A DNA stretch of 41,459 nucleotides from a virus (IMGVR_UViG_3300020045_004402:1-41459); one strand, 5' to 3'; counted from the stretch's first letter, positions 4,321-23,016 are shown. Notes: a model not told the origin generated them from the sequence alone. Numbers and translations are program-made.

Positions 4321-4526
4321 TGGAGCAGGAACACATGGATAAGATGAAAGAAGCGATGATTAAGATGGATGAGGCTTGCGCAATCATGCACGAGATGATG
4401 GATAAATCTGATGAGCTGTCTGGCGGTGATGAGCTGAAGGAAAAGGAATATATGTCAATGCCTAAAGAAAAGCGCGTTGAGTACGACCGAAAGCAAGTTC
4501 TTGGTAAAGTAGAAGAAGAAAAATGA
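4317..4526 (+). CDS. Small acidic Met-rich hypothetical protein
   Basis: 69-aa ORF, SD aaggag, overlaps both neighbours. Confidence 0.65.
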   Translation: MMEQEHMDKMKEAMIKMDEACAIMHEMMDKSDELSGGDELKEKEYMSMPKEKRVEYDRKQVLGKVEEEK

Positions 4527-4921
4527 GCTACGTTGCCTTAATGATGATTCTGGCGGCGTTCACGTATTCTGACATTAAGTACTTTTTGCTGCCGAATGTT
4601 TTAATGTTCTCAGCAATGTTCTTTGGTTGTGCTATCACTGGGTTTTACATCCCGTGTGCTGTGGCGTTCATCTCAGTAGCGTTGATTTGTGAACACGGCA
4701 AAGTCATTCGATGGCAAGGCGGAGATGTGAAGTTAATTGCCATGGTAGCAGCATTCATAGGCTGGCTCTTTATTCCAGTGGCGATATTAACGCATCTCTT
4801 TGTAAATTTATACAGGCGGGTGAGGAATTGTAATGTTGGGTTACCTCTTGCGCCGTTTGTTTCTGTAGCAACTTTAATTGTTTTGTTATCAGCGGCCACC
4901 CTAAAATTCATTGTGAATTGA
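4523..4921 (+). CDS. Prepilin peptidase, A24 family (TadV/CpaA-like; no Zn/methyltransferase domain)
   Basis: Polytopic hydrophobic 132 aa; A24 signatures YSD17IKYFLLPN, GGD68VKLIAMVAAFIGW and C-terminal LPLAPF. Confidence 0.88.
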   Translation: MSYVALMMILAAFTYSDIKYFLLPNVLMFSAMFFGCAITGFYIPCAVAFISVALICEHGKVIRWQGGDVKLIAMVAAFIGWLFIPVAILTHLFVNLYRRVRNCNVGLPLAPFVSVATLIVLLSAATLKFIVN

Positions 4922-4947
4922 TGGGTCGCTTTACAAGGAGGAGTAGC

Positions 4948-5859
4948 ATGAGTTTTTTAAAAAAGATGTGGCTGTGCATCCTTTCTCAAAGAGGCGAGGA
5001 GGAAGGTGAAGCAGCAAGCGGTAGCGGTGAGGCTTCTGTCGAAGGACAGGGAGAGCAACAAGCCGTCGCTGAAGGGCAGTCAGGTGAGAAGCCGGCTGTG
5101 AGTTTAGAGGAGCTGCAAAGACAGGTAGATGAGTACAAGTCCAAGCATGAGACACTATCAGGTCAGTCAAGGGCGACAGAGAGAAACCTGGCGGCAACGC
5201 GCAGAGCGCTTGAGTCAAGTGGCTTTCGATTACTTACCGACTCCGATGGTAACGTGCAGCTTGTGCCAGCAGCCAAGCAGACTCAAAACTCTCGCTTCAC
5301 AGACGAACATAAAAATAAGTTCTTTTCATACTTTCCCGATGCTAAGGCTGGTGAGGAGTTTCTTAACATCCAAAGACTTCTGATTGAAGACATGCTTGAT
5401 TCAGGCCTTAAGGGATTCAAGGGCGAGATGACGAAAGAGCAACAATTCTCCTCGCAGCGTCAAGACTCCATCAATAGAATGTATCAGCTTTTTCCTCAGT
5501 TGGACTCTAAGGACAAGGGTTTCAACAAGGAGTTCTACGACAAAGCTGATAGGATACTGATTGATAGATACCTTGACCCAAAGACTGGACAACCTTTAAT
5601 CGCTCACGCAGACCTTATTGCAGCTAATGAGGCAGCAATCGAGCTTGGAATATCTCCTGCATCTGTGGTAAAGGCTAAGGCAGAGGCTTTCGAGAAGGGC
5701 AAGGAGTCGAAGCAGATTGTAGGCACTGTGAAAAGCTCGCAAGCACAAGGCGGCGGTGGTGGATTCAAGAAGCTCGCCTTTGCAGAATACTCCAAGCTAA
5801 GCCAAGAGCAGAGGGCTGAGTATGATAAGAACGACATACAGACACGAAAGGTAAAGTAA
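4948..5859 (+). CDS. Capsid scaffolding protein with Flp-like N-terminal leader
   Basis: ATG 4948 has SD aaggagg; acidic low-complexity N-terminus plus coiled coil; directly before the MCP; leader MSFLKKMWLCILSQRG. Confidence 0.75.
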   Translation: MSFLKKMWLCILSQRGEEEGEAASGSGEASVEGQGEQQAVAEGQSGEKPAVSLEELQRQVDEYKSKHETLSGQSRATERNLAATRRALESSGFRLLTDSDGNVQLVPAAKQTQNSRFTDEHKNKFFSYFPDAKAGEEFLNIQRLLIEDMLDSGLKGFKGEMTKEQQFSSQRQDSINRMYQLFPQLDSKDKGFNKEFYDKADRILIDRYLDPKTGQPLIAHADLIAANEAAIELGISPASVVKAKAEAFEKGKESKQIVGTVKSSQAQGGGGGFKKLAFAEYSKLSQEQRAEYDKNDIQTRKVK

Positions 5860-5861
5860 AG

Positions 5862-7190
5862 ATGGATTTCTTAAAATGGTTACGACTGTTGATTAACGAA
5901 GACGGTTGGACGCCAGAGATGTCTGTAACGGGCGTTGCTGATGTTGATGCCGCTATTCCAGAGTACTGGGCCAAAGGAATTCTCACTGATGCAAACCGTG
6001 AGTCTTTCTGGGGACAGCTTTCAGGAAAAGAAGGCTCTCGTATGCCTGTTATAGATAAAACCGGCCCATTACGTCAGAACGGCGATTCTTTAATCTTCAA
6101 CACAATCGCTCAGTTGATGGGTACTGGTGTCACTGGTGGAAGTGTTTTAAAAGGAAATGAAGAGTCTCTTTCAATAGGCTCTTTCTCAGTTACATGCGAT
6201 GTTGTTCGTCATGCCGTAGCCATTCAACGCAAGGCTACTAAACAAGCGAACTTCGACACAGTGCAAGAAGCTGGCACATTGCTTAAAGAGTGGATGACAC
6301 GCAAGATGGATAATGATGTCTTTACCACAATCATTGACACTGCGTCTGATACGCTTTTTGCAAACTCAGCTGCTTCTGCTGGCGCGATGAGAAACAACAA
6401 CGGCAATGAGTTTGGTATGACTGAAATCGACATGATTCGGTTAGCTTTGCTTCGTCAGGGAGCAGACCCGATTCAAGTGACTCGGTCAAATCAAAGAACA
6501 GTGCCTGTTTATGGTATAGTGCTTGGTGAAATTGAAGAATACCGCATCTATCAAAACACAGCGTTCTTACAAACAATCCGTGAAACATGGCAGAGATTTC
6601 AACAGGGTGGTTCTCATCCGTTGATTGACAACGCCATCGGGATGTTTAAGAATGTTCTTTTGTATCGGTATTACTCAGTGCTTCCGATTCCGCAAGGAAC
6701 TCCGCTTCGTGCTGAGACTACAGTTTTCGCTACGCTCACAACGACAGCAACTCACTTGTCTGTTGGTGCAGCTTCTGCGACAACTGGCGTGACGCCGAAC
6801 TACACGTTGTTCTTCGCAACGGCTGGTTCGCTTCAAATTGAAGATGAGGTCATTGGTTACACTGGTAAAACCAACAACACATTCACGGGCTTAGTTCGCT
6901 CTGACCTTGAATATGTTGGAGGTTCTGCAACAACTGCTGTGCAACACGGCGCTAACACGCTTGTAACACAACGCAACATCGCTTCTGTCATTGGTTTTGG
7001 TGCTGAGGCTATCTTCCGAGCAATCGGCGATGAACCAGAACCAGTCGGTGAAAAGGATGATTACGGCGAGCAAGTTGGTATCGGAATTAGAGCATACTAC
7101 GGACAAAAACTGAAACAAGACAGACGTCGTGCTAAGAGCAAGAACGTTGTCGTGATGAAAGTTTGGTCTAAAAACCCTGGAACTGTCTAA
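5862..7190 (+). CDS. Major capsid protein (N4-gp56-like HK97 fold) with Flp-like leader and an inserted domain
   Basis: 442 aa; GTGVTGGSVLKGNEESL, VRHAV and DYGEQVGIGIRAYYG resemble N4-gp56-family MCPs; follows the scaffold; leader MDFLKWLRLLINEDG. Confidence 0.85.
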   Translation: MDFLKWLRLLINEDGWTPEMSVTGVADVDAAIPEYWAKGILTDANRESFWGQLSGKEGSRMPVIDKTGPLRQNGDSLIFNTIAQLMGTGVTGGSVLKGNEESLSIGSFSVTCDVVRHAVAIQRKATKQANFDTVQEAGTLLKEWMTRKMDNDVFTTIIDTASDTLFANSAASAGAMRNNNGNEFGMTEIDMIRLALLRQGADPIQVTRSNQRTVPVYGIVLGEIEEYRIYQNTAFLQTIRETWQRFQQGGSHPLIDNAIGMFKNVLLYRYYSVLPIPQGTPLRAETTVFATLTTTATHLSVGAASATTGVTPNYTLFFATAGSLQIEDEVIGYTGKTNNTFTGLVRSDLEYVGGSATTAVQHGANTLVTQRNIASVIGFGAEAIFRAIGDEPEPVGEKDDYGEQVGIGIRAYYGQKLKQDRRRAKSKNVVVMKVWSKNPGTV

Positions 7191-7206
7191 ACGAAAGGAG
7201 ACTAAA

Positions 7207-7701
7207 ATGATTAAGTTTTTATTAGCTCTCCTTGCCGTGGTGGCAATGGCAGGGCAGTTGTATGCAGATAGTACGTACACATCAACAACAAACATCAAAG
7301 GCGGAAACGCTGACTTTGCTGTCGGTGCTAATGTTGACCAGAACAATGGTTACACACAACGCATTGACTCAGAGGGAGCTGCTTACGTTCAAGAGAAGGT
7401 TCAAGAGGTTGTTGAGGCAATTGACGCAAACGACCTGTATAGTGGAACAACAGTAAAATCTGGGGCGTGCAGATTGTCCTCCATTACCTTTGGTGGGCCA
7501 ACAGCTGCTGCTGGAGATTTTCTGTTGGTGTATGACAATACATCAGCCACTGGAACTCCTAAGTTTGACATATCAGTTGGAACTGCTAAGGACACTGTTT
7601 TCTTTGTGGTTCCTGGTGGCGTAAAGATGGCAACTGGCATCTTTGTCAAGCAAGGAAGTGGTGGTTCTTCTGGTGTAGCTACTGTCACGTACGACGATTA
7701 A
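7207..7701 (+). CDS. Beta-rich structural/decoration-like protein with Sec signal peptide
   Basis: MIKFLLALLAVVAMAGQLYA| signal; C-terminal LVYDNTSATGT...GIFV phage beta-sandwich-like motif; directly after the MCP. Confidence 0.65.
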   Translation: MIKFLLALLAVVAMAGQLYADSTYTSTTNIKGGNADFAVGANVDQNNGYTQRIDSEGAAYVQEKVQEVVEAIDANDLYSGTTVKSGACRLSSITFGGPTAAAGDFLLVYDNTSATGTPKFDISVGTAKDTVFFVVPGGVKMATGIFVKQGSGGSSGVATVTYDD

Positions 7702-7705
7702 GGAT

Positions 7706-7742
7706 TAGGGGAGCTCTGCAAAAGCATCTCCCCTATCTCTTT
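7706..7742 (+). terminator. Probable intrinsic terminator after the MCP and next gene
   Basis: taggggag (7706-7713) / ctccccta (7728-7735) stem followed by tctcttt. Confidence 0.55.
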
Positions 7743-8771
7743 ATGAAAGACATCCTCTTAAAGCTAATCCTACTCATCTCACCTCTCGCCTACATGGCAG
7801 GTAGGGCTATAGATTCTTTTGACTTGGTGGTTTTCCACATCGGATTCATTCTTTTGTTTATTTCAGCACAATTCTTGACAAATAAGCCGATACAGTTAAA
7901 AGTTTTCTCAATCTTCCTCTTAGCTGTTCTTGCCTGCACTGCTTTAAGTGGGTTAAAGACTGTTTCAGTATTTGCCTTGCTTAATCTTACCGTTGCACTC
8001 TGCGTTGTTCAGTTGATGAGCATTGAGTCATATAAGAAATTTGCTAATATCTTCTTAATAGCCTCAATCATAAACATAGCGTTATGCTTCTTCCCTACAA
8101 TTTCTCCGATTGATAACCCGACAGGAGAGTCTGGTGGATTATTTGGAAACGCTCCAAGGCTCTGCTACTACCTTGCGCTCACAATGCCTTTTGTTGTTGA
8201 TAGATATACTCTTACACTTCCCGCTTACGCTTTGCTTGGTGTTGTATTTAAAGAGATTTACTTGGTAGCCTTTGCTACATTTATCTTATTCGCAAAGCTC
8301 AGTAAATTAAAATACAGAAAAACTATCTTTACGCTACTGTCCGTTGTGATGTTGGCGATATTTTATAAAGACATCGCACAATCTTTCTCTATCCGTTGGA
8401 CGGTGTGGCAACCGACTATCATTCAAGCACTACAACAGCCCGTATTTGGTTACGGCCTTGCCACGTTTCCGCAGGTTTCAACTCAATTCATAAAATCATA
8501 CTGGACAGCTGATGATTCATTTTCATCTATGTTGCAATTTTTCTTCTCATGCGGATTTATTGGTTTGACAGCTTTAGCTTACTGCGTAAGGCAGTTCCTT
8601 CCGATTAAATTAACTCCACCAGCCACAGCTTTAATCTTCTTGTCAATTCTTAGCCTCGTGGAGTATCCATTCGAAGTACCAAAATTATGGCTGACAATTT
8701 GTTTCATATTGTCGGCTTTTATCATAGAAAAGAACGAGCTTCAGAAAGGAGCACTAAATGCAGTTAATTAA
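7743..8771 (+). CDS. O-antigen ligase-like (Wzy_C/WaaL/O-oligosaccharyltransferase superfamily) membrane protein
   Basis: ~10 TM segments; GGLFGN loop; SFSIRWTVWQPTIIQALQQPVFGYGLATF matches the S..R..W......P.FG.G..F Wzy_C loop. The usual H-N motif is replaced by DDS. Confidence 0.72.
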   Translation: MKDILLKLILLISPLAYMAGRAIDSFDLVVFHIGFILLFISAQFLTNKPIQLKVFSIFLLAVLACTALSGLKTVSVFALLNLTVALCVVQLMSIESYKKFANIFLIASIINIALCFFPTISPIDNPTGESGGLFGNAPRLCYYLALTMPFVVDRYTLTLPAYALLGVVFKEIYLVAFATFILFAKLSKLKYRKTIFTLLSVVMLAIFYKDIAQSFSIRWTVWQPTIIQALQQPVFGYGLATFPQVSTQFIKSYWTADDSFSSMLQFFFSCGFIGLTALAYCVRQFLPIKLTPPATALIFLSILSLVEYPFEVPKLWLTICFILSAFIIEKNELQKGALNAVN

Positions 8772-9057
8772 AGTCAAGTATGTAGGCAAGGGCGACTCCG
8801 TCCTCACTGAATATAACGGAAAGAAGTACAGTTTTGGAAAATCAAACTCTGTGCAGACAATTCCGGTAGAGGTTTACAATTTTATGCAAGACTTCCAAAG
8901 TCCCTTCAGAGAGGACATCGTTCCATTCAGCGATTTCTCTGAAGAAGTAAAAGAAGAAAAGAAGAAATCAATTCTTGATGAAGTAGCTGAGATTGAGAAA
9001 GACTTAAAGAAAGAGGCACCACATGAGAGCAAGAAGGTCAGCGGTAAGCGTAAATAG
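8758..9057 (+). CDS. Hypothetical protein
   Basis: 99-aa ORF, SD aaggag, charged C-terminus. Confidence 0.7.
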   Translation: MQLIKVKYVGKGDSVLTEYNGKKYSFGKSNSVQTIPVEVYNFMQDFQSPFREDIVPFSDFSEEVKEEKKKSILDEVAEIEKDLKKEAPHESKKVSGKRK

Positions 9058-9373
9058 CTTAGACCCAGTTAAGACGGCGCATGAGGTTTATGACACATAC
9101 GACTATGCCTCATTCACCGTAGCTACGGCGACCACTAACTACGACTGTGAGGCGCAGCAGTCTACGTTGTGGCTTAACGTGCCAATAGCGACAGGTGTTA
9201 TCGTCTGGTCAGACCAAGACATCACAGTTAGGTTTAACAACACCACCATGCCAGCTATCAGCCATGAGGCTGTTTACTCTCCTCACGAGTGGTTTGATAA
9301 GCTGCAGGTGACGAACATCTACATCACAAACACATCAGGCAACACAGCAAACATAAGGATATTTCTTGTATGA
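9023..9373 (+). CDS. Small beta-rich putative virion protein
   Basis: 116-aa Thr/Val-rich ORF in the structural operon. Confidence 0.6.
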   Translation: MRARRSAVSVNSLDPVKTAHEVYDTYDYASFTVATATTNYDCEAQQSTLWLNVPIATGVIVWSDQDITVRFNNTTMPAISHEAVYSPHEWFDKLQVTNIYITNTSGNTANIRIFLV

Positions 9374-10185
9374 GCGAATTTACTGACTTAGTATCAGATA
9401 TGGAGAATTTAATAAAGCAAAAGCCTGTCATTCTTGCTGACATAGCCAATCTTCAAAGAAACAAACAAGCGTTGATAGCTGAGCTGGATGTTCTTGGCAA
9501 GTCTTTAGATTCAATTAAGACAGGAATTGAGATTGAAAGAGAAAAAGCTAAAAATGAAATAAAGACTTACAACGAGCATCAGGCTATTGTAATAAGAAAA
9601 GAAATTGACAGGCTAAATAAAGCAGCAGAAGCGACAAATGCGCTTATCAGCAAAAACATGATTGTCGAGGCTGAGCAAAGACAAAGAGAGAATGAGCTCA
9701 ATGCTTTACACTATAAGCTTGTTGAGCTTGAAAAGTCTCTAAACGAGAAAGATTCATCATTGAAGTCTTTACAAGTCGACTTAAATAAAAAACACGATGA
9801 TAGCACAATTAAGTTAAATAAAGTTGAAAGCCACATTAAAGAGATAAGAAGGCTTTTTATAGATAACGAACAGCTTAAAGTCGACTTAGAAAAGCAGATG
9901 GATTCTACAAAAGAGCAGTTAGCCGTTTTAAGCGATAAGAAAAATTCTTTGCTTCTTGAGCTAAGACAGTTTAACAATGAAAAGAGTGAGTTTGAAGCAT
10001 CAAAGTTAGAGGTTTTGACATTGAAGGAAAAGCTACATATAGAAATAGCAGATGCTGAAAAACAGAGGCTTTTTTTGGATAAGCGCAAGAAAGACCTCGA
10101 TGACAAGCAGCGAGCGTTAGAGGCGGAGAAGGCTGAACTTGCCTTTCAAAGCGCAAAGATAAGTGCGAAAGAAAAGAAGAAATGA
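9370..10185 (+). CDS. Long coiled-coil protein
   Basis: 271 aa rich in E/K/L with heptad pattern; ATGA overlaps at both ends. Confidence 0.75.
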   Translation: MSEFTDLVSDMENLIKQKPVILADIANLQRNKQALIAELDVLGKSLDSIKTGIEIEREKAKNEIKTYNEHQAIVIRKEIDRLNKAAEATNALISKNMIVEAEQRQRENELNALHYKLVELEKSLNEKDSSLKSLQVDLNKKHDDSTIKLNKVESHIKEIRRLFIDNEQLKVDLEKQMDSTKEQLAVLSDKKNSLLLELRQFNNEKSEFEASKLEVLTLKEKLHIEIADAEKQRLFLDKRKKDLDDKQRALEAEKAELAFQSAKISAKEKKK

Positions 10186-13100
10186 TTTTTAGGATTGCTG
10201 TTATATTTTTCTTCATGATGTCAAACTGCTGCTATGCACAGCGGGTGACGACACAGGGGATACTCATTAAAGAGTCAGATGGCTCACCTACAGGGCCACT
10301 TAGAGAGCTGACAACTACAAACGGCTCTCTTACAAACAATGGCGGAGGAAAGTTTGCTTTAAGCACCTCTGCTGGCAATGCCCCATCCGACGCCACCTAC
10401 ATCACCCAAATCCCTAATGCTACTCTCACAGCAGAACAAGCTCTTTCTGCCTTAGCCTCAGGCGTTCTCTCCTCTACCACCACAACAGGCGTTGTAGCCT
10501 CTACAGCCTTTACAGCAGGGTCAATCCCTTTTGGAGATGGAGCTAAGCTCACACAAGACAACGCCAACCTATTCTGGGACGACACTAACAACCGTCTTGG
10601 AATTGGTACGGTTTCTCCATCGACTTCTTTGCATACTGCGGGAGGGTGGCAGATAGACGGTACAGGGACTAACAAAGTTAGATTCCTTACAGGAAGTGCC
10701 TCAACAGCAGACCGATTGGATATTTATTCGCAAACTACTAATCTTGGGATTGGATTTCAGCTTATTCCTAACGGGACTTCTACTGTCTCTAAATTAGCTC
10801 TTGCAAACACAAACTCTAATTCTGTTTTTGGCTCTGCTTTTTTCGGAGTAAATGGAACATCGGCTTACATTGCACCTCAAACTGTCGGGGGCGGAAGTGC
10901 GGTTACTGATTTAATCTTTGGAGCTGATGTGGGGGTGGGTGGGTTAGCAGGTTCTAATTGGACATCTGTGCAATTTGCTGCAACAGCATTGATTTTGCAA
11001 ACGAATAGTTATATTAAATTAAATAACACAGCAGACATTCGTGGAACTGAAAGTGAAAGCGAGTATTATTCTCTTAAAGCATATAAAACTAACGATGAGA
11101 CATGGAAAGAACTAATTCGTGTTACAGCTGGAAGTTTTGACAATAATTATCCAGACAATACAGGTTCTCTAAAATTTTATAACCGAGCAGATTTTTCAGA
11201 AGCGATGAACATTCGCCTGCCAGATAGCACAATAGCTGGGGCTGCATCAAATGGCGAATACGGAGCTATATATTTTAACAAGGATTATTACGGAGTCGAT
11301 AAAGGAACCATTAAACTACACGACAGTGGAGAAATAAGAGATGTTATTGCTGTTCAAGCGCAGGCATCTCCCACAATAGGTCAAGCAGTTATTTTTAACG
11401 ACCAGTCGCAAGTAGCGTGGGGAAGCCCATACCTTCTGATTGGAAATCAGTATGAAATACCCTATGCCGCAGCCAGTGGCTTTGCCACATCAGAACAAAG
11501 TTTCAAGTGGCGCACAGATTTGAACAGACTGGTTTTAGGTATTGTAGGAAATCCAAGGGGTCTGATAATACAGAATAATTCCTCAGCTTTAAGTGATGAT
11601 GCAATGCAGAGAAGGGTTTTGTATATAGGTTTGGTAAACTCTTACAACACAGCCTCATCTGCTGCTTACTATGGCATACAAAATGAATCAAGTTTGGGTG
11701 CTGGATTAACAAATGTTTCATCCTATCTCCAATATGACAGTCAACCAGTGTTGGGGTCAAATATAACTGGAGCATTAAATCATTTTAGGCTTATTGAGGC
11801 TACAGGGGCGGGGACTACCCCAAGCTCTTACATGATTGAGGTTCGTAACGCCACTAAGGGAAGTACCCGAAACATAAACCTTTGGATGGGAACAGCAACT
11901 ACGCCGACAGGCAATTGGAACATTTTTGCTGATTCCACTTACCAAAATGCAATTGTTGGAAACATCATGTTCGGAAGTACGACTGCGCCTACAAGCAAAG
12001 TCCATCTCGGTGGGAACGAAACTAAGGCTGCTCCAACAACCACAGGAGCTTGGTTTGGTGTTTCAGCGGCAACTCTAACGGATAACTCAACTGCTGCATC
12101 TGGTACGGTAGCCACAGGGACTTTCTCGGCATTTGCTCAACCTACTTATGCTGCTTCGAATGTTTCGGTAACCGTAACTGATGCGGCGACTGTTTATATT
12201 GCTAATGCTCCGACGGCAGGAACGAACGTAACCATAACCAAACCATATTCATTGTGGGTAGATGCTGGAAAATCAAGATTTGATGGAATTGTTGACATAC
12301 GAGATAATTCTCCTCAACTCATAGGTACTACTGCCATTGGATATGACACTGTTATTTATCAATCGGGAACTGGTGGTGGTGGGCAGAATGTATTTAAGCG
12401 AGCTGATGGGACAGAGGCAGTACCAACTGACTTATTAAGTGGAATGTCCTTAGGTTCTTTTAGTTTTAGAGGTTATGTTAATGGCGGATTCTCTGGCAGC
12501 AAAGCGTATGTTACAGCTGTAGCAGAGGCTAACTGGTCAGCCACTTCAAACCCTACCAGGCTTGTTTTTTCTACTACAAAAACAGGAAGCACTACTCTTT
12601 CAGACAGGTTTACCATAGACAATGCTGGGTTAGTTGGCATAAATGTCACACCTACGGTGTATCTTGATGTTAAACCAGTTAACTACACTTCTCCAAGTGT
12701 TTTTTCCTATGATGGCGCTACGTTTACTGATAACACAAGTGCAGCCGCTACTTCCCGAGGTGCAACTTTTACCGTTCTATCCGACACAAACGATTATTTT
12801 TATGTAGGAAGCACTGAGACTTTCACAAACCTGAACTTTGATTTTTTTACCCTTGGAGTAAATATAACTCTTGTGAAGGAATATTCTAAAGGTGGCGGGA
12901 CATGGGGAACCCTGGCAGTTACCGATGGTACTTCAAACATGACCGCTGATGGGAACATTACTTGGACGGCACCAGCTGATTGGGCGACTGATACAGTAAA
13001 CGCGGTGGCTAGTAAATACTGGATTCGCTTATCTACTTCCTCAAACGCTACAACAATTCCATTGGCTTATGTGGCGTCAGCAGTTTCAGCGAACGCTCTA

Positions 13101-14468
13101 CAAGTCAAGTCTCAGACAGGCGATAGCTCAACACTTACTGTCACAAGACGAGGAACCATCTTGCTTGGTCAAGGCGCCGGCGAGGCAAGCTCAAGTAATT
13201 TTCTTTCTTGTTCAGCAACCCTAATTGACACCGCTGGTGGAGCGCAGATTGGTTCAAATTATCAGTTTACGCTTACCCCTACGGGAACTTCAGCAACCGA
13301 TTTTCGTTCACTCAATCTTGAAAACACAATGACTGGCGCTCAGAATTTTACAGGGGCAGGTTCTGTGGTCCAGGGGTCTTTTAACATCAACAGGTATAAC
13401 GCTACGGGAAACGCATCACTTCTCATAGGCGTATTTGGTGCTGGTTTCTGGCAAGGTGGTGGACAATCAAACTTTGGAACAGTTACTGATGCTATTGCTA
13501 TTAGAGCGCAGAGTGCTAACCAGTTTTCATCAGCCGCCACAGGGACAATAACCACTGCGACAGGTATTCAAATACAATCTCCAGGCCATACCGCCACTAC
13601 TGGTATGACCATGACCACCACCATTGGGCTTGATGTTCAGAACCAAGGTGTTTCAACTGCGCCACTTTCTACAAGCACTTATGGTGTTCGCATACAAGCA
13701 CAGTCAAACTCAACCAACAATACAAACCTTGTTATTGGAACAGCCGCAACTGGAACATGGAATATTTATAGCAATTCTACTAATGTAAGTTGGTTCGGTG
13801 GGAAAATAGGTATTGGAGCAACAGCGTTTACACCGACTAATATGTTATCTCTTAGCGGTCAAGTAGCTCAAACAATCTGGTCAGAACGCCACGCAACAGC
13901 CGATACAGCAGGGAATACCCTGACACTTCAAGCAGGTGGAGCTACTTCAGGAGCAACAGACAAGAATGGCGGGGACTTAATTCTTGCCCCAGGTCTTTCC
14001 ACTGGAACCGGTGTTGCTCAGGTCAGAGTCCAGGGGACGACTAAAGGAACTACTGGAACAGCGGATAATACTCTTGTCAATCGTATCATTGTCAACGGAA
14101 CAGTAAATCTTACGTCTGGGGTTGCCTCTACCGTTGCCACAGTTACAGCGGCAAAATTTCAAGGCAGTGGCGGTCATATTTTGTACTCGGTATTCGCTAC
14201 AGACGGAACTGATATAATTGAGGCATCTGGTCAGGTAGCTTTCTCAGTAGTTCGGGATACTACCGGTGCTTATATTAATACAACTAGCGTTCTTGGTACT
14301 GAGGCTCAAGCAAAGAGTGATGGGACGGATACCATCACGAACACCTGGGGAACTGCAGCCACAAACACAGTGCAAATCACAAGTACAATAACTGGGATGA
14401 CACCAACCACTTTTCAGATAATTTACACAGTTGTATCTAACAGTCGCCAGGCTGTAACAGCACCATAA
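10182..14468 (+). CDS. Large tail fibre/adhesin-like protein with N-terminal Sec signal peptide
   Basis: 1428 aa rich in T/G/S/A; fibre motifs NLFWDDTNNRLGIGTVSPSTSLH and GLVGINVTP; N-terminus MIFRIAVIFFFMMSNCCYA|Q. Confidence 0.7.
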   Translation: MIFRIAVIFFFMMSNCCYAQRVTTQGILIKESDGSPTGPLRELTTTNGSLTNNGGGKFALSTSAGNAPSDATYITQIPNATLTAEQALSALASGVLSSTTTTGVVASTAFTAGSIPFGDGAKLTQDNANLFWDDTNNRLGIGTVSPSTSLHTAGGWQIDGTGTNKVRFLTGSASTADRLDIYSQTTNLGIGFQLIPNGTSTVSKLALANTNSNSVFGSAFFGVNGTSAYIAPQTVGGGSAVTDLIFGADVGVGGLAGSNWTSVQFAATALILQTNSYIKLNNTADIRGTESESEYYSLKAYKTNDETWKELIRVTAGSFDNNYPDNTGSLKFYNRADFSEAMNIRLPDSTIAGAASNGEYGAIYFNKDYYGVDKGTIKLHDSGEIRDVIAVQAQASPTIGQAVIFNDQSQVAWGSPYLLIGNQYEIPYAAASGFATSEQSFKWRTDLNRLVLGIVGNPRGLIIQNNSSALSDDAMQRRVLYIGLVNSYNTASSAAYYGIQNESSLGAGLTNVSSYLQYDSQPVLGSNITGALNHFRLIEATGAGTTPSSYMIEVRNATKGSTRNINLWMGTATTPTGNWNIFADSTYQNAIVGNIMFGSTTAPTSKVHLGGNETKAAPTTTGAWFGVSAATLTDNSTAASGTVATGTFSAFAQPTYAASNVSVTVTDAATVYIANAPTAGTNVTITKPYSLWVDAGKSRFDGIVDIRDNSPQLIGTTAIGYDTVIYQSGTGGGGQNVFKRADGTEAVPTDLLSGMSLGSFSFRGYVNGGFSGSKAYVTAVAEANWSATSNPTRLVFSTTKTGSTTLSDRFTIDNAGLVGINVTPTVYLDVKPVNYTSPSVFSYDGATFTDNTSAAATSRGATFTVLSDTNDYFYVGSTETFTNLNFDFFTLGVNITLVKEYSKGGGTWGTLAVTDGTSNMTADGNITWTAPADWATDTVNAVASKYWIRLSTSSNATTIPLAYVASAVSANALQVKSQTGDSSTLTVTRRGTILLGQGAGEASSSNFLSCSATLIDTAGGAQIGSNYQFTLTPTGTSATDFRSLNLENTMTGAQNFTGAGSVVQGSFNINRYNATGNASLLIGVFGAGFWQGGGQSNFGTVTDAIAIRAQSANQFSSAATGTITTATGIQIQSPGHTATTGMTMTTTIGLDVQNQGVSTAPLSTSTYGVRIQAQSNSTNNTNLVIGTAATGTWNIYSNSTNVSWFGGKIGIGATAFTPTNMLSLSGQVAQTIWSERHATADTAGNTLTLQAGGATSGATDKNGGDLILAPGLSTGTGVAQVRVQGTTKGTTGTADNTLVNRIIVNGTVNLTSGVASTVATVTAAKFQGSGGHILYSVFATDGTDIIEASGQVAFSVVRDTTGAYINTTSVLGTEAQAKSDGTDTITNTWGTAATNTVQITSTITGMTPTTFQIIYTVVSNSRQAVTAP

Positions 14469-14477
14469 GGAGGGTCC

Positions 14478-14693
14478 ATGATTAAATACGTCAAGAACGC
14501 AGAAGGAACTATCAACGTAGTCGAATGTACCGAGCAAATCCTCGAAACCATCACCGTCGAGCAATTCAACGCTATGTTAGAAAAGGCTAAGGCTGATATT
14601 AAAGATGCTGAGAATTACAAGCAGAACTACGTAACAACCAAACAATCCTATGTCGATGTTTTGGAATCAGCCAAGACAGAGCTTGGGATATAG
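14478..14693 (+). CDS. Hypothetical protein (possible fibre chaperone)
   Basis: 71-aa ORF, SD aaggagg, after the fibre gene. Confidence 0.65.
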   Translation: MIKYVKNAEGTINVVECTEQILETITVEQFNAMLEKAKADIKDAENYKQNYVTTKQSYVDVLESAKTELGI

Positions 14694-14706
14694 AAAGGAG
14701 AAAGAA

Positions 14707-14952
14707 GTGAAAAAGTTATTCTTAATTATCGCTTTAATTTTTATGGCATCTTGCGCCTATGCCCAACAGGTTGACTTAACTAAGCAATCTGTCGCTGAGA
14801 TAAAAGCTATGATTTACGACCAAATGGTTTCACTGACAAACATCCAAAAAAACATTCAAATTTTGGAGGGAGAACTACAGAAGAGGCAAGTACCACCAGA
14901 AACTCAAGTAGAAGTAAAACCACCAGCCACTGTTGAGGAAGAGAAGAAATGA
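14707..14952 (+). CDS. Small secreted coiled-coil protein
   Basis: GTG start at 14707 with SD aaggag; signal MKKLFLIIALIFMASCAYA|QQ. Confidence 0.7.
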   Translation: MKKLFLIIALIFMASCAYAQQVDLTKQSVAEIKAMIYDQMVSLTNIQKNIQILEGELQKRQVPPETQVEVKPPATVEEEKK

Positions 14953-15549: not shown

Positions 15550-15659
15550 AGTTATCTACCTACAAAAAGAAGAAGCGCAAAGCGCAGAAGAAAAAGAGCG
15601 GCTACGACATCAATCAGTTTTGGTGTTTTGGCGCAGTCTGTGCTAACCCTTCGAAATAG
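15546..15659 (+). CDS. 37-aa Lys-rich peptide; not in ORF track
   Basis: MKLSTYKKKKRKAQKKKSGYDINQFWCFGAVCANPSK; SD ggagg and ATGA overlap. Confidence 0.45.
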   Translation: MKLSTYKKKKRKAQKKKSGYDINQFWCFGAVCANPSK

Positions 15660-15667
15660 GAGAGAAT

Positions 15668-16157: not shown

Positions 16158-16345
16158 TAGAAGACGCTTTAAAGGCATTTAACTGGGTAACTGGCCGGAT
16201 AGATTCCGCTGCAAAGTGGATAAAGAAAAATGCGAGGAAAAATGAGATTAACAAGATTGATAACGCTGTTGACAGTGGTAATGATGTTGATATTGCCGCT
16301 CGGCTGCGCAAGCTCAAAAAGTCAACCGAAGATAGAAACGCCTGA
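16154..16345 (+). CDS. Small protein overlapped by a lipoprotein gene (Rz-like arrangement)
   Basis: 63 aa; the lipoprotein ORF starts inside it in another frame. Confidence 0.5.
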   Translation: MIEDALKAFNWVTGRIDSAAKWIKKNARKNEINKIDNAVDSGNDVDIAARLRKLKKSTEDRNA

Positions 16346-16457
16346 GAAGCCGATAGCTAAAAGTTTAAAACAAGGAGACGTGGCGACATTCAACTGTGTT
16401 TGCGTTGACCCTGAATATATTAAACTTTTATTGAAAGAATCGACAAGGACACCATGA
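16242..16457 (+). CDS. Lipoprotein, possible o-spanin (Rz1-like)
   Basis: MRLTRLITLLTVVMMLILPLG|C lipobox; Pro-containing mature part; lies in the lysis-like cluster. Confidence 0.6.
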   Translation: MRLTRLITLLTVVMMLILPLGCASSKSQPKIETPEKPIAKSLKQGDVATFNCVCVDPEYIKLLLKESTRTP

Positions 16458-16609
16458 GTTATCCTAAGCGTTTTTCAATAATTCTTTTAATATTTTTTGT
16501 ATGGAATTGTATGCTCACCTTTTTTGTCTTTAAGATATTCGGAAATATCGCCTTGCTGGCGAAGGCGGTGTTGTTGATTAAAGAATTGCTTCCTGGGACG
16601 TGGTTATGA
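16454..16609 (+). CDS. 51-aa membrane protein; not in ORF track
   Basis: MSYPKRFSIILLIFFVWNCMLTFFVFKIFGNIALLAKAVLLIKELLPGTWL; ATGA overlaps on both sides. Confidence 0.55.
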   Translation: MSYPKRFSIILLIFFVWNCMLTFFVFKIFGNIALLAKAVLLIKELLPGTWL

Positions 16610-17085
16610 GTGAATATGTGATAGGCTTTCAGGCAGTAGGTGCTTTGGTTGGACTTGTTATCGCAAGCGCTCTTTACATGATTGGCGGGCGTTCAAATAA
16701 AATTATCCGGCGATTAGGCGCAGCATTTGTATTGACTGCCACAGTAAACATCCTTTGCGCTATCCGTGGGATATGGCAGCCTTTAATGTTGGCTGTTCTT
16801 CCTTTACAATTCGCAGGGATGTCGCTTGGGTATGGCGCTGACATAACTTGGTGGAAAGTTATTAGACGTTCAGTTTATGCTTCGGCTATTTGTATGTCAG
16901 GGCTTTTGATGTGCTTTATTCTCGGTGGAAATGCATGGATGATACTACCATTGCATATTGGAGTGGCAGCATGGTCGATATGGTTAGCGGTGAAGAACCC
17001 CTTGCCTGCTGCGGCCGAAGAGACATTCGTTTGCGCTTTACTTAACACGGGCTTGATGATGTATCCGTTCACAGGAGGAGTTTAA
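16606..17085 (+). CDS. Polytopic membrane protein of unknown function
   Basis: ~5 hydrophobic helices; ATG 16606 coupled to the upstream stop. Confidence 0.7.
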   Translation: MSEYVIGFQAVGALVGLVIASALYMIGGRSNKIIRRLGAAFVLTATVNILCAIRGIWQPLMLAVLPLQFAGMSLGYGADITWWKVIRRSVYASAICMSGLLMCFILGGNAWMILPLHIGVAAWSIWLAVKNPLPAAAEETFVCALLNTGLMMYPFTGGV

Positions 17086-17798
17086 TGGGACTTTACATAA
17101 ATTTAGCAAGTGTAGTTTCAATCGTCGCTGATTCTACAGGAGATGACACATCAGACGCTCAAGTGAAGATAAGAAGGCTTGTTAATGAGAAAGGGCCAGG
17201 CTTTTGCCTTATCACTAACTGGCCGTTCATGCGCTCTGATGTTTCCTTCTCTATCTCCTCAACAGCAAACAAGTATTCAGGGGCAAGTTACTTACCTGAA
17301 AACTTTAAGAGGGTAGTTGGCGCTCATTTAAAAGACTCAAATAATAAGTGGTATCCGTTGACAGAGGTTTCTATTAACGAAAGATACCAAAGGTGGATTA
17401 ACCCTAACAATGATAATCAAGGTCTGCCAGATGAGTTTTGTATTACTCGTCCTGAGAGTGGTTACTATGAGATTGAGTTTAATAGACTGCCAAGTGAGAC
17501 GTACACATTCGAGGCTGACATAGAGCTTAAGTGGACTCCAGCCACCTCAACAACAGCTAACCTCGTAATCACCGACGACTACATGGAGACATTTACTCAC
17601 TTTATAGCAACGGCGAGAGCACGGCAGCAGGGAGACTTGGAGCTTTACGGTATTTTAAAGTCTGAGTGGTGGAATCCAAGCGACTCTCAAGGCAGTATCT
17701 TAGGCAGAGCTTTGGCGAGTATTAAATCTCCTCTTAAAAGACAAGGAATGACACCTCTTGAGGCTGAGAGGCAATACAGAGACTACAATAATGTATAA
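17085..17798 (+). CDS. Head-tail adaptor / tail tubular protein A-like
   Basis: WPFMR, LPENFKRV and GLPDEF motifs typical of podovirus adaptors; precedes the nozzle gene. Confidence 0.65.
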   Translation: MGLYINLASVVSIVADSTGDDTSDAQVKIRRLVNEKGPGFCLITNWPFMRSDVSFSISSTANKYSGASYLPENFKRVVGAHLKDSNNKWYPLTEVSINERYQRWINPNNDNQGLPDEFCITRPESGYYEIEFNRLPSETYTFEADIELKWTPATSTTANLVITDDYMETFTHFIATARARQQGDLELYGILKSEWWNPSDSQGSILGRALASIKSPLKRQGMTPLEAERQYRDYNNV

Positions 17799-18534
17799 CA
17801 AACAAGTATATTGTAAATGTGGTTGTGGAAATTTGATAAGCATGTTCGATTCCAGAGGCAGGGAACGCTTTTATACTAAAGGACATTCAAATAAAATTAT
17901 TATTGAAAAAAATAATCTAATTCATTTGTATATTGAGCAAATGTTAAGCATGCAAAAAATACAAAAGATTCTTAATAGGCATCAATGTGTTATTGTTTAC
18001 AATCTTAAAAAACATGGGATAAAAATTAGAAAGCCGCATGAATATAATATTGGAGCTAAAAGGGAAAAATCAACTTGTCTTAAAATAAGTAAAGCAAATA
18101 AGGGTGTAAAAAAGAAATTTACGGAAGAATCAAGAGCGGCAATTTCAGAATGGCGGAGTAAGAATTATAAAGGCAATAAAAACCATTTTTATGGAAAAAA
18201 GCATACGCAGGAAACTAAAGATAAAATATCAAAAGCAAAAGTTGGCAAATGTGGTGGAGAGAATCATCCATTATGGCGCGGAGGAACATCCAAAGAACCT
18301 TATTCTTTTGATTTTAACAACGAACTTAAGGCATTAATCAGAAAGCGTGATAATCACAAGTGCCAAATGTGTAGTGCGCCGCAAGAAGAATACTCTAAAA
18401 CTTTCCATGTTCATCATAAGGACTATGATAAGAAAAATTCATCCCCAAATAACTTGATTACACTTTGTCCTTCTTGTCATTCTAAAACTGTGCATAAGCC
18501 AGAAATTTATAAGGAATATTTTAATGTTCAATAA
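17791..18534 (+). CDS. HNH homing endonuclease with NUMOD3 motif
   Basis: CKCGCG, NHFYGKKHTQETKDKIS (NUMOD3), RDNHKCQMC, HVHHKDYDKKNSSPNNLITLCPSCH; AT-rich; overlaps both tail genes. Confidence 0.9.
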   Translation: MYNKQVYCKCGCGNLISMFDSRGRERFYTKGHSNKIIIEKNNLIHLYIEQMLSMQKIQKILNRHQCVIVYNLKKHGIKIRKPHEYNIGAKREKSTCLKISKANKGVKKKFTEESRAAISEWRSKNYKGNKNHFYGKKHTQETKDKISKAKVGKCGGENHPLWRGGTSKEPYSFDFNNELKALIRKRDNHKCQMCSAPQEEYSKTFHVHHKDYDKKNSSPNNLITLCPSCHSKTVHKPEIYKEYFNVQ

Positions 18535-20074
18535 ACGTTTGATTGGATTTTCTCGTGTGGATAATTTTTTCGGCGTAAATGCGAAAGATTCGTCTCCAAA
18601 CATGAATGACGGTGAGTGGCATAGAGACTCAATCAATGTAGTCTCTGACCCTCAGGGTGCGTTAGGCTCTCGTCCTGGCTTTACCGCTATTACAGCAGGC
18701 TCTATCGGCTCTACTAACGATTGGTGTGGCTTCTTTGAGTATCAAGTGCATTCAGGCGGCTCAACGAGTAAATACTACGTCGGAGGAGGTTCTAACGGTT
18801 GGGTTTATAACTACACAGGTGGAGTTTACACGGTTATAGGCAAGGGATACAGCACATCTTTAGATGATGATAAGCGATTCAACTTCTTCACTTTAAACAA
18901 TGTTCTTACAGTTATTCCTGGAGCAGGAGACTGGCCTGGACTTTGGTCAGGTAGCGGCTCGATACTTTCACATACGACAGCTGTGACAGCTGATTGGGGT
19001 ATGGAATGGCAAAGATACGGATGGCTTCACTCAACGGTAGACCCAAGACTTATTTACTACAATGCTGTCATTGGTGCTCCTGATTCCGCTTACACAGACT
19101 TCCTTAACTTTGATGATGACGGTGAGCCTCTCACTGGTGGAGGAAAGCAAGGCGACGATTTGATTGTAGGCAAGGAGCACGCTCTTCACCGTGTACAGTA
19201 TCGAGGCACAAGCCCTTTATTTAAGAAATACCGACTTCCAGCGAAGATTGGTCCAGTAAACTTTGAAACGTGCAAGACTCTTCCTGATGGAAGCCTTGTA
19301 TTCCTATCACCTGACTGTAACTTTTACAGGCTTGTAGGCGACACACCGATTCCAGTCGGAGACAACATCCAGCCCTATGTTAAAGATGGAGTGTTCTCAA
19401 GGCTTAAGTTCGCTGTGTCTGGTATAAATTATAAACGAAGCCAGTATTGGTGTGCCTTTACGTATACCTCTGGAGCTACGCAGAATGACCGAACGATAGT
19501 TATGGACTGGTCGAGGCCTTATGAGGATTTGTGGGGCAAGACTCAATATCCGTGGTTCATCACTGACATCGTAGCAAACTGCTTTGCTGAGGTGACCGTA
19601 TCTGGTGAGAACCTTCTCTATCACGGAGACTATGCTGGTAAGGTTCACAAAGACGATACCGGCACGAATGACAACGGAGCTACCTTCACCTCATTCTACC
19701 GTTCAAAGGTATTTGACTTTGGCGACCTTACAATTGAGAAGAAATACCCACACATTGAGTTTTCGTATGAAAACAAAGGTGATTGGAATTTAGACATAGG
19801 TCTTGTAGCAGATGAGAACGCCGCTACGCAAAAGATTTTAACTCAAAACATGCAGTCTGGTATTACAGACTCACCACGGTGGGACTACGTGACATGGGAC
19901 AACTTCAGTTGGTCGGCTGAGTCGGACTCTAACAAGACGAGGCATGTTGACCTTCAAGGTAAGACGCTTTATACAACTTTTAGCACTGATGGCTTAGATG
20001 AAGCTTGGAACGTGTATTGGTATGTTCTACATGCTCGTCCCTTATTTAGAAGCTCAAGAAAGAGGGAGAGTTAA
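18524..20074 (+). CDS. Tail nozzle / tail tubular protein B-like (P22 gp10/T7 gp12 class)
   Basis: 516 aa beta-propeller-like; N-terminal NFFGVN...NV...GALGSRPG; C-terminal YRSKVFDFG. Confidence 0.7.
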   Translation: MFNKRLIGFSRVDNFFGVNAKDSSPNMNDGEWHRDSINVVSDPQGALGSRPGFTAITAGSIGSTNDWCGFFEYQVHSGGSTSKYYVGGGSNGWVYNYTGGVYTVIGKGYSTSLDDDKRFNFFTLNNVLTVIPGAGDWPGLWSGSGSILSHTTAVTADWGMEWQRYGWLHSTVDPRLIYYNAVIGAPDSAYTDFLNFDDDGEPLTGGGKQGDDLIVGKEHALHRVQYRGTSPLFKKYRLPAKIGPVNFETCKTLPDGSLVFLSPDCNFYRLVGDTPIPVGDNIQPYVKDGVFSRLKFAVSGINYKRSQYWCAFTYTSGATQNDRTIVMDWSRPYEDLWGKTQYPWFITDIVANCFAEVTVSGENLLYHGDYAGKVHKDDTGTNDNGATFTSFYRSKVFDFGDLTIEKKYPHIEFSYENKGDWNLDIGLVADENAATQKILTQNMQSGITDSPRWDYVTWDNFSWSAESDSNKTRHVDLQGKTLYTTFSTDGLDEAWNVYWYVLHARPLFRSSRKRES

Positions 20075-21036
20075 TGGATTTAAGACCAGCATTTACATCT
20101 TTTGATAATCCAAATGATATTCTTGAATTAAAAAGAATAATACAAGAAATGTCCGACGAGTTAGATATTATATACACAACTTCTAATCCAAACGGAGTAG
20201 TAAGCGCCCGTCAAGGAAGAAGAGCAATTTACAAAAATGGAAGTAGTTACGAAACATATACTAATGTGGACGGACTTACTACATGGGTAAGAGTCGGTGG
20301 TTCACTGAACGCTCTGTGGGTAGTGGATGGCACTGAGACGCAACTTTCCACCGCCGATGAGATTGACATGCAGTCAAAGAAAATTATCAATGTCACAGAC
20401 CCAACGGCGGCGCAAGATGCAGCGACGAAGGCATCCAGTGAATTATATGCTAACGGAAAAATATCTAAAACTACTGCTGGCGAAATCTCCGCAATGACGG
20501 AGAAGACAACTCTTGTTGACGCTGACTTGTTTTTAATTGAGGACAGCGCCGCAGGAAATGCGAAGAAGAAAGTTCAGAAGAGTAATGTTTCTCAAAAGGT
20601 TTTAAGCAATGTCATTTTCTTAGATGATTTAACTATGGGTGATGCTACCTATGAACTTATCTCAAATACCTCTCTAACTGCTTCGCCAGGAACAAATGTA
20701 TATAGGTATTATATACGCTCTGTTTCTACCTCTTACTCGGAGGTACGTCCTAAGATAAGATGGGTAAAAATAGCTGGAGTTTCAACAATAACAGTAGTTG
20801 CTTACGTTTGGCAGTTTACAGCAGATAGTCAAACTCAAGGTTTTCAGGTTGATGTTGGTGGTCAGACAGGAGAGAATTCAAGTATTAGCAACACGCAAAC
20901 GCCAACAAGAGTTTCATTTACTATTGATGTATCTGGTTTAGTAAATGGAACTGAATACGATATTAAATTTAACGGTAAAAGACAAAGCACAACGTCGAAT
21001 GTTTATACTGGACTTGTTGCGTTATTTGGAATCTGA
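20074..21036 (+). CDS. Tail fibre/spike-like protein
   Basis: IDMQSKKIINVTDPTAAQDAATK fibre motif; beta-rich C-terminal head. Confidence 0.65.
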   Translation: MDLRPAFTSFDNPNDILELKRIIQEMSDELDIIYTTSNPNGVVSARQGRRAIYKNGSSYETYTNVDGLTTWVRVGGSLNALWVVDGTETQLSTADEIDMQSKKIINVTDPTAAQDAATKASSELYANGKISKTTAGEISAMTEKTTLVDADLFLIEDSAAGNAKKKVQKSNVSQKVLSNVIFLDDLTMGDATYELISNTSLTASPGTNVYRYYIRSVSTSYSEVRPKIRWVKIAGVSTITVVAYVWQFTADSQTQGFQVDVGGQTGENSSISNTQTPTRVSFTIDVSGLVNGTEYDIKFNGKRQSTTSNVYTGLVALFGI

Positions 21037-21104
21037 TGAAAAAATTCGGCAACGGCGGTTCAGGAATTTGTGTGGTGATGTATTAAAAAAAAGGAGTTGA
21101 GAAA

Positions 21105-21812
21105 ATGAACTTTTTAAGAATTCTGTTTGACGAACGAGGCACGACATTAGCTATCACAAGAGTTTCATCTGGAGCCATCGCCACAGCAGCAATTCAGTCC
21201 ACAAGAGACGCTCAAGTCGAAGCTGTAGTCAACGGAGCAATCGACTCTGATTCAAACATCGCCGCTGATGGAGTAAAGGCAGTAGCTTTAAATTCTGACG
21301 TCGTTAATGCAAACAACGGACTCAAGCAAGAGGCAAACGGCAGCCTCTCAGTCGACCCTTCAGACACGAATCCGTGCCTTGAGATTACAGACGGTGGTGT
21401 GAGGGTGAAGGTTACAGGATTGATTAACAGAACTTCCTCAGGGTTAGAGTTTGGAATATCTGGTGACATTTTATTAACAACTGTTTCAACAGCAAGAACT
21501 GGTTGGACAAACGTTTCTTCGACGTATTCAAATAAGTTTATACGAATTAACGCAACTGCATTATCGGCTGGCGGCGCGGATACGCATACTCACGGTGCTG
21601 GAAGTTATGCTGGGCCGAGTCATACGCATTCAGGCACGACTGATGGCGTCACGTTTGGCGGTGGCGGAAGTTTAACGGCTGGGGCGTTAGACACAACGCA
21701 TACGCATACATTCACAACGGGTGCTGGTGGCACAGGCGCTGTCACAGGAACATCAGCAAGCGGCGATAATGTCCCTGCTTACATGACGTTAATTATGTTT
21801 CAAAAGGATTAA
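21105..21812 (+). CDS. Tail fibre/needle-like protein with Flp-like leader
   Basis: Repeated HTH metal-binding fibre-tip motifs, GG.DTHTH and NVPAYMTL..K C-terminus; leader MNFLRILFDERG. Confidence 0.7.
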   Translation: MNFLRILFDERGTTLAITRVSSGAIATAAIQSTRDAQVEAVVNGAIDSDSNIAADGVKAVALNSDVVNANNGLKQEANGSLSVDPSDTNPCLEITDGGVRVKVTGLINRTSSGLEFGISGDILLTTVSTARTGWTNVSSTYSNKFIRINATALSAGGADTHTHGAGSYAGPSHTHSGTTDGVTFGGGGSLTAGALDTTHTHTFTTGAGGTGAVTGTSASGDNVPAYMTLIMFQKD

Positions 21813-21815
21813 TTA

Positions 21816-22127
21816 ATGTTTAACTTAGTCAGAAAACAAAAACGAGACATCTCCGGTGAGCTTATCAAAGAGCAAGCTCTTAAAAGTAAAGGCGTGTTGC
21901 TTGAGGTATTATCTGAAAGTATTGAGAAAGGTAATCGTCTTTGCCCTCTCCTTATGGGAAGTGCTTGCCTCGGAAAGGCTTGTATGTTTTTTATGCAGTT
22001 TAAAAGCGTGGATGAAAAAACCGGAGAATCTACAGATTTCTATAACTGCGCTTACGTGCAGACGCCGTTACTTCTTATTGAGTTAAACCGAAGTATTAAA
22101 ATTTTAAAGGAGGGAAAAAATGTTTAA
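21816..22127 (+). CDS. Hypothetical Cys-containing protein
   Basis: 103 aa; CPLL...C...C...C pattern. Confidence 0.65.
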   Translation: MFNLVRKQKRDISGELIKEQALKSKGVLLEVLSESIEKGNRLCPLLMGSACLGKACMFFMQFKSVDEKTGESTDFYNCAYVQTPLLLIELNRSIKILKEGKNV

Positions 22128-23016
22128 ATCGACTAAAAGACTTTTAGAAATTCTCAAAGATGAGAGTGGGATGGGGCTGCCATTGATAGCTGCTGGAGTT
22201 ATTGGCGGAGGCGCTTTAATGAAGGGTCTTCTTGGTAAGAACAAGGAAAAGACCATAGACCCTTACGCCGGATTGAGAGGCGATTATCAAAGCTACCTTC
22301 AAAAGAAGCTCGGCACATCAACTCCTTACTCGTACAACGAGGACTTTACGTTAGACCAGCCAAATATTGAGAAACAGACAGAGGGTGTCATCTCAGGAAA
22401 GCTTGGAAATCTTCCGAAGATTCAAAGCGACATCTATGATATTGGCACTAAGTATTACAATGCTCAGAAGGCTCAGATGACTGAGAGGCACGGCGAAGAG
22501 GCTAAGGCTAATCAGAATATGTATAACCGACTTGGGCTTGTCTCTTCAACTCCAGGGCTCCAGGCACAGACTGACCTTGGTAGGAAACAGGGTCAGGAGT
22601 TTAACGTACTTGAGGCAGACGTAGCTCGTCAAGGGATAGACCAAGAGATGAAAGCTTTAGCATTGGGCGAAGATATTGCAAATCAGTATCTCACTCAAGG
22701 ACAACAATTAGGAAATCTTCAAAGGGGCTACCAACGAGACTCAATGACGATGTCGATGGCTGACATCGAACGGATGGTTAATGAGGAGCAGGGCTATGCT
22801 CAGTTGGCTGGAGGACTATTAGAAGATAATCCACCAGAGACTTACTTCCAGCCTAACTTCTGGAGTCAGCTTGGAGACGCAGCAATGAGCGGAGGAACAA
22901 CTGCTTTAACCGCTGGAATGCTTGGTGGTGGTGGAGGTGGCACTGAGGGAACAGTTGGAAATACAGGAAAAACTCAAAGTCAGATATTAGGTAGAAGCAC
23001 AGCAAGATATAGATAA
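22120..23016 (+). CDS. Ejection/DNA-transfer protein (P22 gp7-like) with Flp-like leader
   Basis: SD aaggagg; MFKSTKRLLEILKDESG|MGLPLIAAGVIGGGALMKGLLG; Q-rich body with RLGLVSST motif; Gly-rich C-terminus. Confidence 0.65.
   Translation: MFKSTKRLLEILKDESGMGLPLIAAGVIGGGALMKGLLGKNKEKTIDPYAGLRGDYQSYLQKKLGTSTPYSYNEDFTLDQPNIEKQTEGVISGKLGNLPKIQSDIYDIGTKYYNAQKAQMTERHGEEAKANQNMYNRLGLVSSTPGLQAQTDLGRKQGQEFNVLEADVARQGIDQEMKALALGEDIANQYLTQGQQLGNLQRGYQRDSMTMSMADIERMVNEEQGYAQLAGGLLEDNPPETYFQPNFWSQLGDAAMSGGTTALTAGMLGGGGGGTEGTVGNTGKTQSQILGRSTARYR

Follow-up and report, generated by a model that had tools for sequence, protein, structure and literature searches.

The 41,459-base virus record IMGVR_UViG_3300020045_004402, analysed over its whole length and referred to below as the window, encodes a minimal membrane aspartic protease of the A24 (prepilin-peptidase) family among its head genes, together with several virion proteins that begin with short leaders resembling those of Flp pilins. 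Judging from sequence comparison, we propose with a probability of roughly 0.7 that the phage enzyme cuts these leaders off the virion proteins. The substrates would be the scaffold, capsid, tail and ejection proteins, and the predicted cut would fall after the final Gly of the leader (after Ala in some relatives). This pairing of enzyme and leaders was put forward in an initial annotation of the window, the coordinates and sequences of which all proved accurate.

A minimal A24 peptidase among the head genes

The open reading frame (ORF) at 4523..4921 (+ strand, 132 residues) matched PF01478 (Peptidase_A24) at 30.3 bits, above the curated cut-off of 26.5 (E 5.9e-7), which bears out its first assignment. 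Both catalytic Asp residues, D17 (4571-4573) and D68 in GGDVKL (4724-4726), are invariant in 9/9 homologues and then in all 44 of a larger set; the second lies in a GxD motif, and K70 and P111 are likewise invariant in the 44. A profile search ranked about 55 short homologues (94-148 residues) ahead of cellular enzymes. The structure model is all-helical, with a predicted local distance difference test score (pLDDT) of 85, and a sequence search of the PDB with the peptidase returned no match.

PF01478 is the sole domain in the 132 residues, and the N-terminal methylase (DiS_P_DiS) domain is absent. TadV/CpaA enzymes also do without the methylase domain. A quick A24 tree (81 rows, 148 columns), containing just 5 CpaA rows and PilD rows chosen by the phage profile, gathered 39 phage enzymes on one branch (support 98) that also took in a single long-branch cellular row; the enzymes of two relatives, L038 and L039, grouped with PilD-type domains (85), and one long row fell near CpaA. 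In this quick tree the phage enzyme (about 120-135 residues) has a separate branch and does not group with CpaA. The designation "TadV/CpaA-type" given initially fits the peptidase by architecture only, the methylase domain being absent, whereas TadV/CpaA ancestry was not established by the quick tree.

The gene lies between the portal gene and the scaffold and major capsid protein (MCP) genes, a placement in line with the family matches of MCP and, weakly, of portal. Scans of 60 ORFs against Pfam and 30 against PHROGs matched no protease other than A24, in agreement with the initial annotation, and no classical prohead protease of the soluble serine type in the head module. Classical prohead proteases are of the S21, S49, S77, S78 or S80 type. 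As had also been claimed, the same scans matched no pilin or Tad family, and no flp pilin or tad gene accompanies the peptidase among the 60 window ORFs; a loose pilin-motif pattern gave five matches in the window, none at the N-terminus of a pilin-like ORF.

Among cultured phages the peptidase found no A24 match, and MCP relatives there were distant only. Further A24 matches came from unannotated or bacterial-looking records. Two viral models in BFVD, A0A5Q2W8A6 and A5Y2D8, resemble the peptidase (template modelling (TM) scores 0.70 and 0.61), and on the basis of these models A24-like genes may be present in other viruses.

Leader motif, register of the predicted cut site and likeness to Flp pilins

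Four of the four window proteins named at the outset begin with a short leader ending in Gly, all on the + strand. The putative scaffold (4948..5859), named by position since it has no family match, carries a 16-residue leader (4948-4995), and the Shine-Dalgarno sequence aaggagg at 4935..4941 fixes its start at the ATG at 4948. The N4-gp56-like MCP (5862..7190; PF13252; phrog_334, E 2e-30) carries one of 15 residues (5862-5906). The leader of the tail fibre/collar-like protein (21105..21812) has 12 residues (21105-21140), and that of the likely ejection protein (22120..23016), with features like those of P22 gp7 and T7 gp14, has 17 (22120-22170) and is directly followed by a Gly-rich hydrophobic stretch. 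The tail and ejection labels come from feature searches and stand as leads only.

A leader matrix derived from 168 leaders outside the window, when applied to the 67 called window genes, ranked these four proteins as the top four (23.9, 21.6, 10.0 and 5.1; next gene 3.7), which bears out their common leader. From 20,100 shuffled N-termini, the chance expectation per window at those scores is 0, 0, 0.03 and 0.22. The MCP leader, at 5.1, is within chance by motif alone and therefore rests on homology: by eye the leader is present in 110/110 full-length MCP entries, the other 10 of the 120 listed homologues being N-terminally truncated. A second matrix, built from MCPs only and hence circular for MCPs though not for other families, was applied to 1,399 unique called genes, and scores of at least 10.4 were reached only by MCPs, scaffolds and the window 21105 and 22120 proteins.

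In 107 MCP homologues the site could be located with a sequence pattern. The layout is a basic residue, an amphipathic hydrophobic helix, D, C or N at -4 and G or A at -1; residue -4 is D in 71/107, and residue -1 is G in 83/107 and A in 24/107, a small residue at -1 having been demanded by the locating pattern itself. A strict D-E-x-G consensus is ruled out by the variable -4 position and the Ala at -1. The leader is present in 7/7 full-length scaffold homologues, in 8/8 homologues of the 22120 protein and in 7/8 of the 21105 protein, the eighth beginning at the cut register. In the family of the putative head-tail adaptor (17085..17798, +; named by position, without a leader in the window), 4/8 relatives bear a leader, making the adaptor a putative fifth substrate family. 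A sixth leader-bearing protein was seen in genome G023 (L242 14916-15575, - strand), where it adjoins the 22120 homologue; no window homologue of it was detected. In two relatives (L010 9854-11988; L026 3596-5620) the MCP gene is split after roughly 35 codons, where it has taken up an insertion, likely a group I intron, that contains an endonuclease-like ORF; similar short N-terminal pieces turn up in sequence clusters.

Comparison of leadered with leaderless homologues bears on the predicted site. The adaptor lacks a leader in five genomes, the window included, and has one in four; in the alignment the start Met of the five leaderless proteins coincides with the final Gly of the four leadered ones, and both continue with GL. 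The single leaderless 21105 homologue shows the same Met-to-Gly register. Similarly, in a clade without the peptidase gene leaderless capsids start M-ATLN or M-STLN, and leadered ones read G-xTLN at the junction. By these alignments the leader is an optional module, attached in register to five unrelated protein families. Because the Met of leaderless proteins aligns with the Gly of the leader, a cut after Gly would yield the N-terminus given by Met removal. This register supports the predicted site after Gly; of the sequence evidence for cleavage it is the strongest part, yet it is indirect.

The likeness to Flp leaders claimed at the outset is supported by leader ends and by the residue at -2. 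Flp prepilin leaders end in ARNESG in S. meliloti pSymA and in LKDESG in a genome with an adjoining CpaA-type gene; the latter agrees with the end of the 22120 leader, the last five residues being identical. Position -2 is K, R or S in 13/14 Flp leaders, in 24/24 leaders of the peptidase-less clade and in 45/107 leaders of the group of relatives here denoted lineage A, and the full pattern [KR][DNS][EQN][KRS]G occurs in 9 of 14, 12 of 24 and 7 of 107, respectively. A hydrophobic residue at -2 is found in 52/107 lineage-A leaders versus 0/14 Flp leaders. The phage comparison sets one clade, that without the peptidase, against one other, lineage A, and the Flp leaders are few and come mostly from a single phylum. 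A host constraint relaxed after gene capture would give the Flp-like -2 residue in the peptidase-less clade and the drift in lineage A, and the pattern fits a history of host processing first and capture of an own enzyme later. Pfam recognised the leaders neither as Flp nor as class III.

Peptidase and leaders among relatives, and competing explanations

Lineage A comprises 33 distinct MCP loci; nine were excluded because the upstream DNA was too short, and the peptidase gene is present in 24/24 of the others. In a second clade MCP and scaffold bear leaders, with the peptidase at other positions in three records (L038, L039 and L041) and no A24 seen in its remaining, short records. Six complete peptidase-positive genomes encode 3, 5, 5, 3 (plus a split MCP gene with leader), 6 and 4 leader proteins. 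A24 was found in 0/40 further records, seven of them at least 90% complete (positive control 5/5), nor did an unfiltered hidden Markov model (HMM) search of the DNA of peptidase-less records detect it. Presence of the gene and possession of three to six leaders are linked. Strict co-occurrence, which the initial annotation proposed as a test, is ruled out: six of the seven near-complete peptidase-less phages keep the MCP leader. The same leaders in phages without A24, which that annotation had regarded as telling against processing, are thus seen in part, on the MCP only in these relatives. A second leader-like match, from G461, proved to be a signal peptide of the Sec type. Records with a leaderless MCP yielded no A24, but all are partial (11-53% complete). 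On a quick MCP tree, with the leader labels of unplaced proteins assigned by eye, the no-leader label takes six changes, two of them forced by strong branches.

No MCP relative was found in genome_contigs. A search of 401 Omnitrophota genomes gave two distant capsid matches and four shared-domain matches only; many Omnitrophota pilins have basic leaders unlike the phage leaders, and a minority match. On the present reading, the sister clade that lacks the peptidase should infect hosts equipped with Flp/Tad peptidases, which offers a way into assigning hosts to uncultured phages.

Several observations weigh against cleavage by the phage enzyme. In known class III substrates the Gly is followed by a hydrophobic tract of 21 residues (PMC4471445), and FlaK reportedly left short peptides lacking such a tract uncut. 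Past the site, the best 17-residue hydropathy is below 1.5 in 34/40 phage proteins. In the four window proteins it ranges from -0.61 to 1.78, only the 22120 protein being moderately hydrophobic (1.78); the class III combination of about 21 hydrophobic residues and Glu at +5 does not occur in the window, and the 22120 protein also lacks Glu+5. Foldseek returned nothing significant for the peptidase model, the best TM-score being that of FlaK (3s0x_B, 0.67; probability 0.51, E 4.3, rank 10). The seven peptidase-negative records at least 90% complete encode 1, 1, 1, 1, 1, 1 and 0 leader proteins, the MCP only. In the high-GC (guanine plus cytosine) provirus record G471 (L360, L361; 50% complete), at least three proteins bear leaders, namely MCP, scaffold and an ejection-like protein, yet its 36.6 kb yielded no A24; the record is a good target for host assignment. 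The peptidase and leader contrasts span two or three clades, which are not independent samples. The scaffold leader of staphylococcal phage 80alpha is reported to be required for assembly and its cleavage not (PMC5744158), and P22 gp7 is functional without its trimmed peptide (PMC8402733); since these cuts are dispensable, the cut need not be the release step. Finally, the Shine-Dalgarno sequence at the MCP start of the window is weak (-3.9), with a Met at +5, and the 22120 protein has a Met at +1.

These last two starts, with a second ATG at +17 of the 22120 gene that has a good site, would suit the view that the leaders arose from faulty gene calling and that translation really begins downstream of them, an eventuality raised in the initial annotation. 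We consider this very improbable. Strong Shine-Dalgarno sequences precede 36/40 leader starts versus 3.5% of random internal sites, from which the leaders are read as translated. The leader start outscores every downstream start in 39/40 genes, 20/40 have no ATG, GTG or TTG within 40 codons past the site, and frame and amphipathic pattern are preserved in 110 capsid homologues. Artefactual starts are largely refuted by the Shine-Dalgarno sequences and the missing downstream starts.

An unlikely but more serious alternative is that the leaders are never cut and stay in place as amphipathic tags for assembly or membrane attachment, the A24 enzyme doing something else, such as cutting host pilin to remove a receptor. 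It would account for the absence of a transmembrane tract from most substrates, for leaders in records without the gene and for the relocated gene in L038, L039 and L041. It does not explain why -1 is small, G or A, in 107/107 (as the pattern required), why the junction is exactly in register with leaderless starts, why the peptidase gene accompanies multiple leaders, or why drift from the Flp pattern is seen only where the gene is present. There is also a slim chance that a host peptidase of the TadV/CpaA or PilD type cuts the leaders in all these phages, the phage gene being a booster or back-up. Prepilin peptidases are often promiscuous (PMC4471445), the cellular Flp leaders that share their last five residues with the 22120 leader adjoin CpaA-type genes, and the six near-complete phages with a capsid leader and no A24 would be processed in this way; retention of the gene in 24/24 lineage-A loci and the hydrophobic -2 of 52/107 lineage-A leaders, found in none of 14 Flp leaders, argue for the phage's own enzyme.

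For cleavage by the phage peptidase, we infer both the cut and a tethering to the membrane. The leader helix would lie along the cytoplasmic membrane at its inner face and, taking over from the pilin transmembrane helix, bring the substrate to the active site, where the amphipathic leader would present its Gly to the Asp pair; in FlaK this pair is on the cytoplasmic side (PMC4985597). The cut would restore the N-terminus that leaderless homologues obtain through Met removal. Until then the leader may stage or time assembly at the membrane; whether staging at the membrane is its purpose, rather than a plain folding or timing tag, we put at about even odds. Ancestors would have relied on a host Flp-type peptidase, with only the capsid protein as its phage substrate; once an enzyme had been captured by the phage, the leader would have been free to spread and drift.

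Genome context and relation to known systems

The + strand carries, in order, terminase, portal (1634..3643; PF23899 match weak and below cut-off; without a leader), small genes, the 132-residue membrane protein, scaffold, MCP, fibre-like genes and adaptor, followed by a nozzle-like gene, ejection-like genes and a glucosaminidase; replication genes are on the - strand, and the order is podovirus-like. Directly after the MCP lies a gene (7207..7701, +) whose product, a possible decoration protein, combines a Sec-type signal peptide with a single jelly-roll fold weakly resembling the capsid cement proteins 7eel_H and 7dn2 (E about 0.02-0.03). Protein and signal peptide are kept in more than 100 loci, leaderless-MCP phages included, and an exported decoration protein would be unusual. 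The next gene (7743..8771, +) encodes a Wzy_C membrane protein (O-antigen ligase/O-oligosaccharyltransferase-like; below the Pfam cut-off) and is kept 3' of the MCP across clades. Together with glycosyltransferase-like genes at 25992-28127 and 28798-29571, it makes glycosylation of the virion or host surface possible. By eye, Sec-type signal peptides are also present on fibre-like and neighbouring proteins in all clades seen (window 10182-14468 and 14650-14952, +; L008 14308-18882; L010 14897-18458; L049 17419-20922). A cluster at 35095-38234 (-) of thymidylate-synthase-like, kinase-like, methyltransferase and dUTPase-like genes makes DNA base modification possible.

A wider scheme is doubtful as a whole and offered tentatively. 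Particles would be built on the inner membrane, with scaffold, capsid, adaptor, tail and ejection precursors held by a pilin-mimic helix and released by a captured peptidase that takes substrates without a transmembrane helix. Decoration and fibre proteins with signal peptides would be exported, perhaps glycosylated by the O-ligase-like enzyme, and the family would preserve a series from leaderless phages, through a host-Flp mimic on the capsid only, to an own enzyme with multiplied leaders.

The closest parallel is Prp (MEROPS C108), which processes capsid and scaffold of 80alpha and has a phage-encoded relative in Cp-1 (PMC9405229, PMC5744158). There too non-homologous virion proteins share a short N-terminal leader that imitates a host substrate, in that case ribosomal L27, and an enzyme of the host or of the phage takes it off. 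Prp, however, is a soluble cysteine protease, whereas the enzyme here is a membrane GxGD aspartic protease; L27 is mimicked there and a pilin here, and the leader is found here on as many as six proteins, tail and ejection proteins among them. The C108 family had no match in the Pfam and PHROGs scans, and the phage leader motif is unlike the L27-like motif of Prp. The phage system works like Prp without being a member of it.

With PilD, TadV/CpaA and FlaK the phage enzyme shares the two-Asp membrane architecture and the GxD motif (PMC4471445, PMC10934763, PMC4985597), and with A24 processing of class III signal peptides a predicted cytoplasmic-side cut after Gly and Flp-like leader ends. It differs in that its putative substrates have no Glu+5 and, for the most part, no hydrophobic tract, and that its genome lacks pilus machinery. 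In P22 the ejection protein gp7, some features of which recur in the 22120 protein, also sheds a short N-terminal peptide, but there the host peptidase OpdA is soluble, the substrate single and loss of the peptide reportedly of little effect (PMC8402733). SpoIIGA of Bacillus subtilis is another membrane aspartic protease that strips an N-terminal pro-sequence from a soluble protein, pro-sigmaE (PMC7593790). It differs in belonging to the unrelated family A36 and in being regulatory and non-viral. The pro-sequence of pro-sigmaE is amphipathic and membrane-binding.

Within the available full text, including PMC6563490, we found no description of this system (subscription journals and supplements lay outside the search). 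Its logic is shared with Prp; its enzyme class and substrate type were not found reported in that text. If the proposal is true, a membrane-embedded GxGD aspartic protease would join the enzymes that mature tailed-phage virions, and the A24 family would gain its first substrates without a transmembrane helix. An enzyme of 120-130 residues with a portable tag of 12-17 residues would then be a minimal model for proteases of the presenilin/FlaK type.

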